Positions 52,701 through 58,700 of a stretch of DNA of 64,000 nucleotides are shown in pieces. This stretch comes from Escherichia coli. GTDB lineage: Bacteria; Pseudomonadota; Gammaproteobacteria; Enterobacterales; Enterobacteriaceae. Position 1 is the stretch's first letter. Every line of letters starts with the position of its first letter. Location of the stretch: NCBI RefSeq assembly GCF_044324875.1, contig NZ_CP172185.1; one strand, written 5' to 3'. Position numbers: made by a program.

Positions 52701-55700
52701 GGGAAAGAGAATTGTTGAGGACGCAAAAATATTACATCAATTGCGCAATTCAAAGCAAGTAAGAAAAAGTCTTCATAATGGAGTACTCCGGTCACGGGAA
52801 TGGCTCAATACACAGGAGTTACTGAGAAGAAAAAATATATCTGTTACAGGTGACTCATTTAAATCTTACATAAAGGATATTGTCAGATTATATTGCTATA
52901 AGTTTCTCTACAGCAGAGAATATCTTAATGAAAACGCATACAAAAAACAATATCAGAGAGTTATTAACCCCAGAGAATTTAATGTTCCGATACTTCAACT
53001 TGAAGTTGCATGGATCAATAATAATTGCCGTTCAAGTGATTCAAGCTCTGATATTATCATCCTTCCCAGGATGATAAGAAGAATGGTTGTATTTAATGAT
53101 ACGAAGATAAATAAACAATTAGAGGAAATGTTGGGGGGGATAGCACGAAAAAAAGTCGCAGTAAGGAATAAAGGCGGTCTCTATACCAGAATAAAAAAAG
53201 AAAATGATTTTCGTTCTATGGATAGATTTATGGTGGAAATCGAAAATATCATAAGACCTGAAATATTTCCGACATCAATTTACCCGCCTTTTTCACTTTC
53301 ATTTATCGAGAGAGAATTGCCACTACTGAATCTGGCGCACTCACAGTACAAAAGAGCAATAAGTAAAAAAGTGGCGAATTCAATTTTTTATACTTTGCGA
53401 AAAACTCACGTGGCATTATGGCTGCATCTTGAAATGTTTGCTCTTGTGGCATTCATCAAACTGTATACAGGAAAAGGGTTTGAATTCATGAAAAACATGT
53501 GTGTATTTATAGATTATGATAAAGGGATAATAAAATCCACGCATGAAGAACTGCTGAGTGAAATTAAGTGTAACATTCAGTTGAATTTAAAGGTGAATCC
53601 TGATAATTTTCCTGAATTAATAGAAATATACAATTCATGCTTTAGTAAAAATATATTGTTGTATGATGTTCAGGATGATGGTTTTAAATGGTGTTTATGA
53701 TGTGAAAATATTAAATTTATATTACATTTTAATTATCGACAAAAAACACATAAAGAAATCTAAAGGGAATGAGCGTCAAATGAGCTGATATAGCGCCAGT
53801 TTGGTATGGTCATGTGATTTGATGATTAAAGCTTACGGATAATAACACTCCTCTGTGAGCCATATAAATGAGCATGCCATAATCGTCAGTTCAGAGATAA
53901 AACTGACTGAATGATCTTATGTTATAGTAAGCAGTGTTTACCGGATACGATGACTTATCTCTCTCACATCATATGGATTCACTTTCATGGGGTAAAGCGA
54001 TGGGACTACAGACGCTGATTATGATGGTTTGCTGTAAAGTTAGCACAAGTTTTTGCTGTACAGAATACGGAGTAAGAAAAATAATTCCAGAGTAAATCTG
54101 CTCTGCTTTTGAACAGAAAAGATTCATGCTTACCGTGAAAAACTGAAACCAACATTCAGTCTGCATGGATGTCTTAAGATGTTGAGAATGTCGGATATGG
54201 TATTATATACACCTTTTCCATTAGGTCCTTTTATGTTTTCATTAAGTCGTTTTGTATGTATTCCTTCAGTGATTCATTAGTGCATGTTTACGCATTTACA
54301 CACTTTTCCCATTAATCTCCTTTAAATGTGTTTCATTACGCATTGCTGTACACATTTTTGAACTGATACACATCCAAGTTAGTAAACCTGTCAGTTCTGA
54401 TTTTACGTTAACTAAATCAGTTTAATGCTGCTGTAAAACAATCTTTCCTGTTTAAGCAATCAATCTGCTATTCGATTTTACTGATGTGACGTTTAACCTT
54501 TCCTGAGCTTTGGTTGTTTGTGGTTTTTGGTTTGTGTTTCGACGTTAAGCTGAGAAAAGTATCTTTACGCTAAATCAACCCGAACTTTCCTGAGGTGATC
54601 TGACGTTCTTTTCGATGTGCTTACGACGATTCTGTTAAACGACTTTCTGGATGTTTTGATAACAATCAGATTGAGGCATTAACGATTCCTGACGTTTTGC
54701 TTTTTCATGTAAGGTCATTGTTTTCGTCATGATGTGGTTTTTCTTCTTGCATTGCGAAAGTGTGATGATTGGTTTTGGTTTTTTGATTCAGATGAGATTT
54801 ACGTTATCGATGGTTAATCGTTTTTATGGTGCGTAGTGAAACGTAACATTTTCGGGATGAGAAAATCGATTCTGATGGTGATGGGGATGATCGTGTTACG
54901 GCGTTATCTGTAAACAGGTTTTAAACGTGTCATTCGCATTCGTGATTGAGTTGTGTGATTAAGCTGTAGGTTTTGGCGTTGTTGTTGATTTGCATTGCCA
55001 GGAAGCGTTCTGGTTGCGTTTCTGGTGTTTTGTTCGAATGTTCTGTGGATCCTTTTCCCTTCAGGCTTTTCTCGTCGTCCATGTCGTTTTTAAATCCATT
55101 CATGCTGTTGTTGCGTGTTTTGCTGCTGTGTGCAGGATTATCTTTTCGTTCCGGGATGGTTTGTTCCGTTTCAATCACTCTTAATCAGAGAGTTGTAGCA
55201 TTGCTTAATGACATGATGCCGTAAAGTTTTACCGCGGTGATTAATGATGTGAAGTCAATCCAAATCAACGGAGATCTCTCATCATGAATCAACCAATACA
55301 CAATGCTTACTGGTTATCCCGTTTTGACAGCCTTCTCGACAGTGCCCTGTCGCAGCACCGTGCCGTCTCGTTAATCCGGGTGGATTTACGTTTCCCTGAG
55401 TATATGCCTGTCACCATCATGGATCCCGATCCGGATTCAGCGGTGATTTCTCGTTTTTTCGAATCCCTGAAAGCCAAAATCCAGGCTTACCAGCGGAAAA
55501 AACGACGTGCCAACAAGCGTGTGCGTGCAACCACTCTGCGTTATTTCTGGTGTCGGGAGTTTGGCAAGGAAAAAGGCAGGAAACATTATCACGTGATATT
55601 GCTGCTCAACAAAGATACCTGGTGCTCGCCAGGGGATTTCAGCGAACCATCTTCGCTGGCGACGATGATCCTGGAGGCATGGTGCAGCGCCCTGCATCTT

Positions 55701-58700
55701 GAGGCCTGGCAAGGCGATGGCCTGGTCCATTTTTCCAGGTGGACGCCTTCCCGTAAACCAGCATCGTCTGATGCTCGCCCTTCTTCCGATGACACGCCTT
55801 TGTCGGGTGGATGTTCTGATACCAGGAAGGCTTCAGAAAAAAAGCCGGGTGAAGCCGCTGTTCTCTGGATCAAGCGTGGTGATGTGGAAGCGCTGCAGAA
55901 AGCCCGGAACAGAGCCAGTTATCTCGTGAAATATGAGACGAAGCAGCATGACGGTTCCGGGCAACGTAATTATGGTTGCAGTCGTGGGCCGGGGCGTCTG
56001 CTGGATGGCAGGTGAGCCCTGTAAAACGACATCCGGTGCCTGAGCTTATGCTACAGGACGTTGGCTGACGCCCTTAGCTCGTTTTCTGAAAAAGTCGTCC
56101 TGAAGTCATGCAACGGTATTTTTCTCTGCTTTCGCTCCTGGAAACACTCCGTCGGTAAAACCTTACTGTCCTGCTTAATGATGTGAACCGAAGTCAACGG
56201 AGATCATTCATTCTGAACCTGCATCCGGTGTTCTGTCCCTTGTCGGTTACCTGATCTTCCCGTTCTGCCGCGGTTTTTCACTTATTCCATCAACCCCATA
56301 CGCAAGCCATAACACGTCAGCGCATCCACGGGCAGGACGCGTTGTGGGCTGCGTATAACGGAACATATCTTATGAATGCTATCCCTTATTTCGACTATAG
56401 CATGGCGCCCTTCTGGCCATCTTATCAGAACAAAATCATCGGCGTTCTCAACCGTGTGTTGCGCGAGCAGTCCGGCTCCAGGATACGGCGGATCCTGCTT
56501 CGTCTGCCGGGGGAACATGGCAACATCTTCAGCGACAGAAAAACCTGGTTCGGTATGGCCTTTATCGAAACCGTCAGTGCGCTGATGAATGCAACCCCCG
56601 GACGCGACCTCTGCTGGCTCCTGACCCGTCATCCTGAAAAACCGGAATACCACGTGGTGCTGTGCGTCAGACAGGAATATTTCGACGGCCCTGAGCTGGA
56701 CCGGTTGATTCTGGATGCCTGGAGCAACGTACTGGGCTTCGCGTCACCGGGTGAAGCAGCACCGTACCAGAAACAGATAACCCGGGATGTGGTGCTGGAC
56801 AGTTGTTCACCGGACTGCGAAGAGAGACTCAAAGAGCTGATATGGGCGTTCAGTGATTTCGCCCGCGATCGTCGTGGTGTGCGCGATCCGGAAGCCCGTT
56901 ACCTCGCCGGTAATCCCTGGTATCCCGTAGCAGGCCAGCTCTGAAAGCTCAGCTCAGCAGATTCACCCGCATTTGCCCAACATTCATAAATCTCACAGAG
57001 GACATTCTGACCATGTTGACCTCAATGACAGGTCACGACAGCGTATTGCTGCGTGCCGACGATCCCCTGATCGACATGAACTACATCACCAGCTTCACTG
57101 GTATGACCGACAAATGGTTTTACAAGCTGATCAGTGAAGGCCATTTCCCTAAACCCATCAAACTGGGGCGCAGCAGCCGCTGGTACAAAAGTGAAGTGGA
57201 GCAGTGGATGCAGCAGCGAATTGAGGAATCACGAGGAGCAGCAGCATGAAACGTGTTGTAATGCCAGTACGCTGGCAATGTGCGAAATGCCGGCGCTGGT
57301 ATTGTGGAAATCAGCCCTGTCCCTGGTGCTGGCGCTGACAACTCCCGCTCATCTTTCTGCTGGCACCCTCTGGCCAGCCAACTGTTTGTCATCATTTCCT
57401 GACTGATTCGTCATTCCCTTCGTCCCGCCAGTCACTGGTGTTTGTATCGTACCGTGCCGGTGTCGATGTGCGCTTTCCGTGTGTCTGGTCTGCACCGGCT
57501 TAACAAAATTCAACGGGGATAAAATAGTGCAAATAACCGAAGCCTTACTTTCAGCGCCGGGGGAAATCCGGCGTTTTGTTCAGCAGGCGGTGGACCACTG
57601 GCCAAATCTGTTGGCATTTCACTTCACGCTCCATTCGGCAGAAGGAAACATCAACGGACAACAGATTCATGCATTCTGTACTTCCTTTTACCGACAGGTG
57701 CACGAGCGTATTACTGAACGTAATCACACGGCCAGTCCAGCACCACCGGTGGTATTACGCTGGTTGCGGGAACAACATGGAGGAGCAACAATGCGATGCC
57801 TGTTGCTGCTCAGCCAGACGAGCATTTGCCATCCACGGGTCAGTGCCACGGTTGATGAAGAATGTTCGCAACGGGTGGATTTATTGCAACAGACATGGCG
57901 GGTGATAAGTGCTGACGGACAATGCCGGGTGGAAAGGTGTTTTCAGGCTGCCCGGGGTGATACATCCGGCCAGTATATTGCGTTAAAAACAGTTGCATTG
58001 TCTCTGGGGTTACCGGTTGTGACCGGTATTACCCATCGCCCGGTACAGCGCTGTACATTGATTACAGCTCAGTGAACAGCGCTGTTGTGCAGTCAACGAG
58101 GTTTTCTGTCTTTTCGTCGGTCATTCAGCATCATTAAACGGGTCTCTGCCTCTTTCTGTTCCTGTGGTGTCACTTCCCCGCACGGCTGACCGTTCAGGTT
58201 GTAACGGGCGCCACCTGCTATTAACGCACGGTAATAGCACGGAGACTGCACATAAGACGCCACTGCTGCATGTAATGTACCAGCGCCAAACGCCAGTTCT
58301 CGGATGGCGATATCCTGTATCAGGTCGTCAGGTATCCCCACTTTAAGTGGTTTTGTTTTTTTCCCGGTTGAATGACTCAGGCCAGAGTTCCACAAGACGA
58401 ATAATGCGCTTACGGTTTTTGCTCTGGCGTTTTGTCATGTCGCCACGGTGTTTTATCAGCAGGTTTCTGTTTATCGTTCAACTGTGGTATCTGGTCACCG
58501 GCCTTCATTTTGTATGCTGTGTCCGTTTTATCCTGCAGCGGCGTTGCCGGTGATTTACTGAAAATACCCTGCGGTTTACGGTTAATGGTCAGAGTTACCA
58601 TCAATTTTGTTACCTCGCGCTGTCAATGGAAGTAGTACCTCATCCGATATCTGAAAATGTTTTCCGGTGGATGTTACAGCGAATTTCATGTAAGACATGT

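Follow-up and report, generated by a model that had tools for sequence, protein, structure and literature searches.

A paired, strongly conserved element of about 70 nt in the alpA-side control module of an Escherichia coli integrative island

Examination of a 64,000-nt stretch of Escherichia coli DNA (contig NZ_CP172185.1 of assembly GCF_044324875.1, hereafter the window) revealed two copies, A and B, of a lineage-specific element of ~70 nt within the alpA-side control module of an integrative island of the type represented by CP4-57 and by the SRL pathogenicity island (SRL PAI). The element is nearly invariant and is present exactly twice per integrative element. Copy A leads into open reading frame (ORF) 1, a gene of the YagK/YfjJ ("inovirus Gp2") family, and copy B lies upstream of ORF2, a divergent paralogue followed by alpA and ORF4. 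Proteins of this family are among the commonest uncharacterised genes of enterobacterial islands, and AlpA is the switch controlling excision in related elements. We regard A and B as putative shared cis-regulatory sites, in the DNA or in the mRNA leader, recognised by one trans-acting factor, a reading to which we assign a probability of roughly 0.55. The strongly conserved pair, which in most copies of the island flanks a cargo slot containing defence genes, is the sole new item reported here. The window itself is deflationary, since it contains the standard layout in reduced form, with no recent duplication and no local inversion. Together with four candidate binding proteins, the element offers a testable handle on the regulation of a very common island backbone.

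A conserved element present twice

Motif A (55221-55288) and motif B (56155-56217) align over 68 columns with one 5-nt indel; they are 70.6% identical (blastn E 1.2e-6). Their Smith-Waterman local alignment scores 41, whereas 300 shuffles gave 22.1 +/- 2.1 with a maximum of 32. The motif core has the form TTAATGATGTGAA...CAACGGAGATC. Its two halves recur exactly: TTAATGATGTGAA at 55241-55253 in A and 56175-56187 in B, and TCAACGGAGATC at 55265-55276 and 56194-56205, with no other exact occurrence of either in the 64-kb window. The shared motif that the original prediction had placed upstream of both genes is therefore real. Self-comparison of 54900-57012 gave nothing above chance beyond A and B (second-best match E 0.46), which constitute the sole DNA similarity between the ORF1 and ORF2 gene regions; in a dot-plot of 55000-57000 they appear as one short diagonal, with no duplicated unit.

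Both copies contain a short palindrome, GTAAA..TTTAC, and a pair of direct half-sites 10 bp apart, GTCAAT-N4-ATCAAC in A (55254-55269) and GTGAAC-N4-GTCAAC in B (56183-56198). The half-site pattern has no further occurrence elsewhere in the window. Motif A leads directly into the Shine-Dalgarno (SD) sequence GGAG (55270-55273) and the ATG (55284) of ORF1. In motif B, GGAG is present at 56199-56202, a CTG (56213-56215) occupies the position of the ATG of A, and the motif ends 155 nt upstream of the ORF2 ATG (56372). With a CTG instead of an ATG, and at that distance, B is not the ribosome-binding site (RBS) of ORF2. The earlier claim that the motif marks the promoter/RBS region of both genes must be given up, as only A runs on to the SD sequence and start codon of the gene that follows it.

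When metagenome contigs were scanned for the exact two-part pattern, 120 loci were found that carry 141 instances of the motif, 70 of type A (12-nt gap) and 71 of type B (7-nt gap), with no hybrid, intermediate or third context. An ATG lies 7 nt past the motif in 70/70 type A instances, and the ORF1 frame continues in all of them except L058, which has a deletion in the 5' end of ORF1; in type B (n=71) an ATG is never found. Among 5,426 complete E. coli genomes, the A region occurs in 1,898 and the B region in 1,876 (~35%), where the latter is always unannotated; the contiguous arrangement seen in the window, the short form described below, occurs in 487. An nhmmer search with the motif profile detected no further diverged copy in the window, in K-12 CP4-57 or in any of the loci.

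Diversity was measured on sequences not selected on B (loci retrieved via A, together with loci from annotated genomes) and limited to one homogeneous class of 13 distinct sequences of the long form, in which cargo separates A from B. Nucleotide diversity (pi) is 0.012 in the 36-nt core of B (TTAATG...ATTCA), 0.064 in its left block, palindrome included, and 0.235 in the 6-nt linker between left block and core. The spacer from B to the ORF2 ATG has a pi of 0.111, and ORF2 codon positions 1, 2 and 3 have values of 0.033, 0.035 and 0.111, respectively. Diversity in the core is about one ninth of that in the adjacent spacer and at ORF2 third positions, and falls below that of positions 1 and 2 as well; a broader diversity profile gave the same picture as the 13-sequence set. 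B is also kept beside differing upstream and downstream sequence classes. As the diversity of the core lies far below that of ORF2 third positions, B appears functional, and since the 6-nt linker varies freely, this low diversity is not regional. By these measures the motif is under selection, and conserved blocks split by a free linker are typical of a recognition site.

The gene pair and the layout of the island

The sequence of ORF1 makes it a clear member of the YagK/YfjJ family, with a predicted intact HUH motif and a catalytic-type Tyr. It matches PF11726 (YagK_YfjJ_C) with an E-value of 3.6e-37 and 128.3 bits (cut-off 25.8) and PF23343 (REP_ORF2-G2P) with 1.9e-10, and RefSeq names it "inovirus Gp2 family protein". 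The HUH motif, HYH, spans residues 101-103, and 55 of 56 distinct alleles retain it; Tyr213, within the YxxK-type motif YLVK, is present in all 56. Of the K-12 relatives compared, YfjJ is the closest (36% identity). A scan of genome contigs with ORF1 returned 2 loci only, and a 'phage' record with a YagK homologue (OR844780) was set aside as an unverified low-coverage contig of 4.5 kb. At about residues 152-192 (55735-55860), ORF1 has a Ser/Pro/Asp-rich insertion of ~40 aa that is found in neither K-12 YfjJ nor the YagK of the distant locus L009; it resembles a disordered linker set within the HUH domain.

ORF2 itself has no Pfam or NCBIfam match (PF11726 E 0.26, 11.6 bits), so that the original description of both genes as YfjJ/YagK-like paralogues stands plainly for ORF1 and, for ORF2, only as remote paralogy. 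A HMMER search of 1.8 billion representatives gave ORF2 relatives nearly all from E. coli, plus two distant full-length proteins, P0076 (36% identical) and P0079 (32%). P0076 matches PF11726 at 1.4e-10, and PF11726 is the precomputed Pfam entry of P0079. Alignment of the ORF2 family profile with ORF1 by hhalign gave a probability of 88.5% (E 2.7e-6). The AlphaFold model of ORF2 (predicted local distance difference test, pLDDT, 77) has its longest structural matches with parvovirus NS1/Rep origin-binding nickase domains and also matches IS608/IS200 transposases, with scores no better than for generic ferredoxin-like folds. The longer database versions of ORF2 all begin with MNAIPYFDY and differ only by C-terminal read-through, and its ratio of non-synonymous to synonymous substitution rates (Ka/Ks) is 0.20, indicating purifying selection. 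By this measure ORF2 is a real gene, and on the indirect evidence above it is a remote YagK-like paralogue. The first His of its HUH motif is gone (EYH in 21/21 alleles, C/F-Y-H in the distant relatives), and the position of the catalytic Tyr is held by an invariant Asp (SDFARD), which P0076 and P0079 also have. Given these losses, ORF2 is probably not a nuclease.

An imperfect hairpin stands just before ORF2 (dG -32.9 kcal/mol, z -3.28). One compensatory G-C/A-U pair was found among the alleles, and a second, unrelated sequence class at the same site also forms a hairpin (8 bp). This hairpin could be a leader structure controlling ORF2-alpA.

The age of the pair can be judged from L009, a distantly related contig with a similar divergent layout. 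One strand of L009 carries a block of CbeA, RadC, DUF932, WYL and GTPase genes, and the other a zinc-ribbon gene, alpA, a 208-aa YagK, the ORF2-like P0079 and a UCP030791 gene, with only 46 nt between the YagK and P0079 genes. P0076 and P0079 both hold the second position of their pairs, and ORF2 is nearer to P0079 than to ORF1. Since ORF1 shares 44% identity with the first YagK of L009, against 18% with ORF2, and ORF2 is nearest to second-position genes, the duplication predates the split from L009, and ORF1 and ORF2 are, as far as their sequences tell, ancient paralogues. L009 has the gene pair without the motif; genes and motif were therefore not duplicated together. A motif identity of 71% beside a protein identity of 18% needs a later, separate copying of the motif, strong constraint on it, or both.

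The architecture of the island was mapped by tblastn of window proteins onto the 120 motif-bearing loci. In the long form, which is the common one, the order is GTPase (minus strand), variable slot, A, ORF1, 2.7-9.5 kb of cargo, a 188-aa YagK (YagK_188, with HAH and YLAK motifs), B, ORF2, alpA, ORF4 and a ProQ/FinO gene (minus strand), so that A and B flank ORF1, cargo and YagK_188. The window has the short form, also found in L030, L040, L044, L053, L064, L069, L072 and L105, from which cargo and YagK_188 are absent and in which A and B are spaced by 930-937 nt. It is because these are missing that the two genes ORF1 and ORF2 have the look of a plain tandem pair. Many E. coli matches to 55150-58100 start at query positions 979-988, and long-form loci share the window sequence only to 33-130 nt past the ORF1 stop, which places the short-form junction at about 56128-56137. 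The left edge of the cargo is not fixed, lying 33, 65, ~100, ~120 or 130 nt past that stop; in L010 and L011, YagK_188 is immediately upstream of B. Long forms were searched downstream of ORF1 for a degenerate copy of B that could have mediated the deletion, and none was found (scores 14-18 over 7-21 columns).

The cargo is hypervariable, and the cargo-bearing loci include L041, L043, L049, L055, L076 and L031. Among its genes are a Thoeris ThsB TIR gene (PADLOC 3.6e-128), the candidate system PDC-S06, an OLD/GajA/AriA-like ATPase, an Mrr-like nuclease, a DUF3987 YfjI-type primase-like protein, the insertion sequence (IS) elements IS21 and IS3, and metabolic genes. The A-B slot is thus a cargo hotspot inside the island backbone, often with defence genes. 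As many as four YagK-like genes, clear or putative, stand together in these islands; some retain the HUH catalytic residues and others have lost them.

The locus in the window is a reduced copy of a very common and already annotated backbone, within a pheV pathogenicity island. The same pheV island in E. coli Ch1 contains, in order, pheV, an integrase, ~47 kb of cargo, ProQ, the alpA block on the opposite strand and the GTPase-to-toxin module, beyond which lie an IS110 remnant, kps and yghD. The window contains no transfer RNA (tRNA) gene, and the suggested search for integrase remnants detected none of P4 type in it. ORF4 reads on the plus strand, and all genes from DUF4942 to the GTPase (47017-52376) on the minus strand. 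As had been noted at the outset, ORF1, ORF2 and alpA read on the plus strand and the toxin/antirestriction module on the minus strand. This had been taken for a sign of an internal inversion or of a mosaic of element fragments. The arrangement does differ from that of K-12 CP4-57, but GTPase and ORF1 lie on opposite strands in 36/36 related metagenome loci with both genes, and the divergent layout recurs in E. coli CS5L, Ch1 and SMS-3-5 and in the distant L009. With such constancy the divergent orientation is the standard layout of the family and not a local inversion. The pheV island is indeed a mosaic, on the evidence of its IS remnants and kps cluster and not on that of orientation.

Proposed recognition sites and competing explanations

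The conserved blocks, the free linker and the half-sites one helical turn apart fit a protein-binding site. The most likely factor would be one that the module itself encodes, either AlpA or a YagK-like protein with an origin-binding-type fold, and it would couple the expression of ORF1, with the cargo downstream of it, to that of ORF2-alpA and possibly ORF4. As RNA, the A leader is predicted to form a hairpin in which the AUG region is base-paired to the box (dG -23.1 kcal/mol, z -3.27). Since the A site overlaps the ribosome-binding region and could fold so as to hide the AUG, control of ORF1 would probably act at or near translation initiation; B, its start codon lost, would act only as an upstream site of the ORF2-alpA unit.

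Several observations weigh against this reading. The half-site pattern was drawn up only once the motif had been seen. It was not found near the integrases examined (K-12 intA, the Ch1 pheV integrase and the CS5L integrase), which leaves no tie to the one known type of AlpA target. No sigma-70-like promoter is predicted at A or B, the RNA fold of B homologous to that of A is no better than shuffles (z -0.25), and neither copy is variable enough for covariation to show. A scan of 46000-60000 against Rfam 15 (E <= 1) gave no match at A, B or the ORF2 hairpin; its lone match, at 46850-46924, is at chance level and outside the feature. The nhmmer profile did not find the motif in L007, L008 or L009, and its absence from these distant relatives means that a module of this kind does not strictly need it. 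Finally, the low diversity could partly come from recent spread or gene conversion.

Among the rival explanations, the most interesting is that A and B are sites of the HUH endonucleases of the island (ORF1 or YagK_188), forming an origin/nick site or an origin/terminus-like pair; the cargo slot would then be replicated or mobilised, in a rolling-circle manner, through a nick at A and termination at B. We consider it unlikely. In its favour, ORF1 and YagK_188 keep both the HUH motif and the YxxK Tyr, the ORF2 model resembles the nickase and transposase domains named above, the two direct repeats bracket ORF1, cargo and YagK_188 in the long form, and in each copy a conserved box comes after a small palindrome, an arrangement often seen at HUH sites. 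A comparison, of mechanism only, can be drawn with parvovirus Rep/NS1, an HUH Rep protein binding repeated sites at its own gene or origin: ORF1 would provide the HUH motif and Tyr, and A and B the half-sites beside a palindrome, while ORF2, unlike those systems, has no catalytic residues. However, the left edge of the cargo is at no fixed site, the 141 instances include no A/B hybrid or single-site product, and in the short form both sites persist, one on either side of ORF1. A short, AT-rich palindrome also counts against the idea, and no such motif lies upstream of other YagK genes (K-12 yfjJ, L008, L009 and YagK_188). Neither copy resembles the M13 gpII origin (taken as TTAAT..GTGGAC), with scores of 14-18 around a shuffle mean of 17. 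A fuller version, in which ORF1 and YagK_188 nick at A and B, ORF2 and ORF4 serve as non-catalytic DNA-binding partners, and nicking turns over or exports the defence-gene cargo, strikes us as very improbable; if true, defence hotspots of integrative islands would exchange their cargo by an HUH-driven mechanism that has not been described before.

It is quite improbable that B is a relic without function, left by the decay of the 5' end of an ORF1-like gene since lost, and that it looks conserved solely through recent spread or by hitch-hiking with ORF2. B does align with A through the SD sequence and on into the first codons, where CTG replaces ATG, and weak similarity runs ~45 nt past the motif (repeat D10). 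A conserved small ORF after B was ruled out by frame-breaking indels among alleles, as a relic would have it. Decay is nevertheless hard to reconcile with a core ~9 times less diverse than spacer and ORF2 third positions of the same sequences, with a freely varying linker that shows the effect not to be regional, and with the retention of B next to different flanking sequence classes.

We give still less weight to a FinOP-like circuit, in which A and B would be RNA elements, a structured leader with the RBS being targeted by an antisense or trans RNA with the aid of the adjacent ProQ/FinO protein. The ProQ/FinO gene is a constant neighbour, and the A leader and its antisense strand each fold into two stem-loops, above shuffles (z -3.27 and -2.85), resembling traJ/FinP. 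Yet no antisense promoter is predicted and no terminator at A or B, the antisense strand of B folds worse than shuffles (z +1.85), Rfam offers no match, and ProQ/FinO is frameshifted in the window and in several relatives with intact A and B.

The least probable explanation, and one largely refuted, is a recent tandem duplication of a YfjJ-like gene with its promoter/RBS, the orientation marking an inversion or fragment junction: the genes are adjacent paralogues, the motif copies are homologous and the orientation is unlike that of CP4-57, but DNA similarity is confined to 68 nt, proteins 18% identical stand beside motifs 71% identical, the pair is older than the split from the motif-less L009, B has no start codon and lies 155 nt from that of ORF2, kilobases of cargo and another gene separate A from B in most relatives, and the orientation is constant in all 36 loci.

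Two further candidates were rejected. A 48-aa ORF on the minus strand (56051-56197), which is annotated in a single genome, runs across the short-form junction and hence cannot be conserved in long forms. An analogy with the P. aeruginosa AlpA antiterminator and its element GGGACG was abandoned, as that AlpA is larger (eight-helix, Q-like, with contacts up to H142) and the one here has 78 aa.

Related islands and neighbouring genes

CP4-57 of K-12 (intA, alpA, yfjI, yfjJ ... yfjP ... yfjZ-ypjF) has in common with the window the families AlpA, YagK/YfjJ, YfjP GTPase, DUF932, antirestriction, RadC, DUF987 and CbeA/CbtA-type antitoxin and toxin. The defence genes abpAB and rnlAB adjoin yfjJ in CP4-57, and a DUF3987/YfjI-like gene is found in the cargo slot of some long-form relatives. 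Unlike the window, CP4-57 has alpA-yfjI-yfjJ beside intA and in the same direction as the toxin module, and it has a single YagK gene, no listed homologue of ORF2 or UCP030791, and no A/B motif.

In the Shigella SRL PAI (Luck et al. 2001; re-annotated in PMC6980539), two adjacent 'inovirus Gp2 family' genes, orf5 and orf6, lie near int and rox, which encodes an AlpA-type factor, and a second set, Gp2 orf39 and AlpA-family orf41, lies upstream of a block of GTPase, Ag43, antirestriction, RadC and YeeU genes (PMC6980539). Compared by annotation only, tandem Gp2 genes beside AlpA are thus already on record; that paper describes neither a shared upstream element nor paralogues lacking the HUH residues. 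The Pseudomonas transfer-messenger RNA (tmRNA) islands I23, I44 and I55 have an integrase at one end, Gp2-like and alpA genes at the far end, and RadC and phage-defence cargo in between (bioRxiv 10.1101/2024.08.29.610337). By description, E. coli Ch1, with its alpA block ~47 kb from the pheV integrase, is alike; the Pseudomonas islands differ in genus and attachment site, and no motif of the A/B type is reported for them. A search of the literature on YfjJ, YagK, PF11726 and UCP030791 returned annotation mentions only and no functional study.

The coordinates of the features are collected in Table 1.

Table 1. Features of the alpA-side module and its surroundings in the window.
Feature	Coordinates	Strand	Basis or remark
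Toxin-to-GTPase module	47017..52376	-	Pfam matches 1e-14 to 1e-66
Variable slot between the two modules	52477..55220	+	hyp407, then AT-rich stretch
Motif A	55221..55288	+	palindrome GTAAAGTTTTAC 55221-55232; box TTAATGATGTGAA 55241-55253; half-sites 55254-55269
ORF1, 243 aa, YagK/YfjJ ("inovirus Gp2") family	55284..56015	+	Pfam
Short-form junction	56128..56137		cargo and YagK_188 here in long-form relatives
Motif B within conserved block	56135..56217	+	CTCCTGGAAACACTCCGTC; palindrome GGTAAAACCTTAC 56154-56166; variable linker; box TTAATGATGTGAA 56175-56187
Imperfect hairpin, 21-nt arms (inverted repeat I1)	56298..56356	+	directly 5' of ORF2 SD
ORF2, 190 aa, divergent YagK-like paralogue	56372..56944	+	remote homology
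alpA, 78 aa, AlpA/Vis/Rox-type small helix-turn-helix	57013..57249	+	Pfam PF05930
ORF4, 182 aa, UCP030791 family (PF27752)	57527..58075	+	precomputed PF27752 on homologues
ProQ/FinO-domain gene remnant	58093..58395	-	PF04352 6.4e-16; convergent with ORF4

ORF1, ORF2, alpA and ORF4 are all under purifying selection, with Ka/Ks values of 0.06-0.31 (0.31 for both ORF1 and ORF4). The alpA gene, with the lowest value (0.06), encodes a predicted excisionase-like regulator, which matches PF05930 (Phage_AlpA) with an E-value of 2e-10 and 40.8 bits (cut-off 21) and the TIGR01764 excisionase domain at 4e-4, and is 25% identical to K-12 AlpA. Between alpA and ORF4 there is a terminator-like hairpin at 57426-57440 and a promoter-like site at 57500-57528. 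These sites suggest that ORF4 may form a transcription unit apart from ORF2-alpA.

Some sources give homologues of ORF4 the name 'inovirus Gp2 family protein'. The alignment of ORF4 with the HUH strand of ORF1 by hhalign is weak (76.8%, E 2.1e-5), and its model matches generic ferredoxin-like folds only. By eye, the ORF4 blocks LLAFHFTL, VLRWLRE, RCLLLLSQ, LLQQTW and QYVALK align with YagK strands and motifs, and both HUH histidines are missing. ORF4 may represent the operon's third YagK-like domain, in degenerate form.

In the window the ProQ/FinO gene (58093-58604, minus strand) is truncated or frameshifted; in CS5L, Ch1 and SMS-3-5 it is annotated with a frameshift. An intact but shorter version, 345 nt long, is annotated in strain OkiPb01709. 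On the other side, the minus-strand module comprises DUF4942, DUF5983, the CbtA toxin, the CbeA antitoxin, DUF987, RadC, antirestriction, DUF932 and the YfjP-like GTPase, and its gene order is identical in the annotated islands of CS5L, Ch1 and SMS-3-5. The slot that follows holds hyp407 (52477-53700, plus strand, 407 aa), which has no Pfam, NCBIfam or PADLOC match and is found in only some related loci; in CS5L, Ch1 and SMS-3-5 another gene takes its place. An AT-rich stretch of ~1.2 kb directly before motif A (54027-55220; GC 0.32-0.45, no long ORFs) is found in 50-78 related loci at ~79-82% identity and is probably a regulatory region between the two divergent modules.

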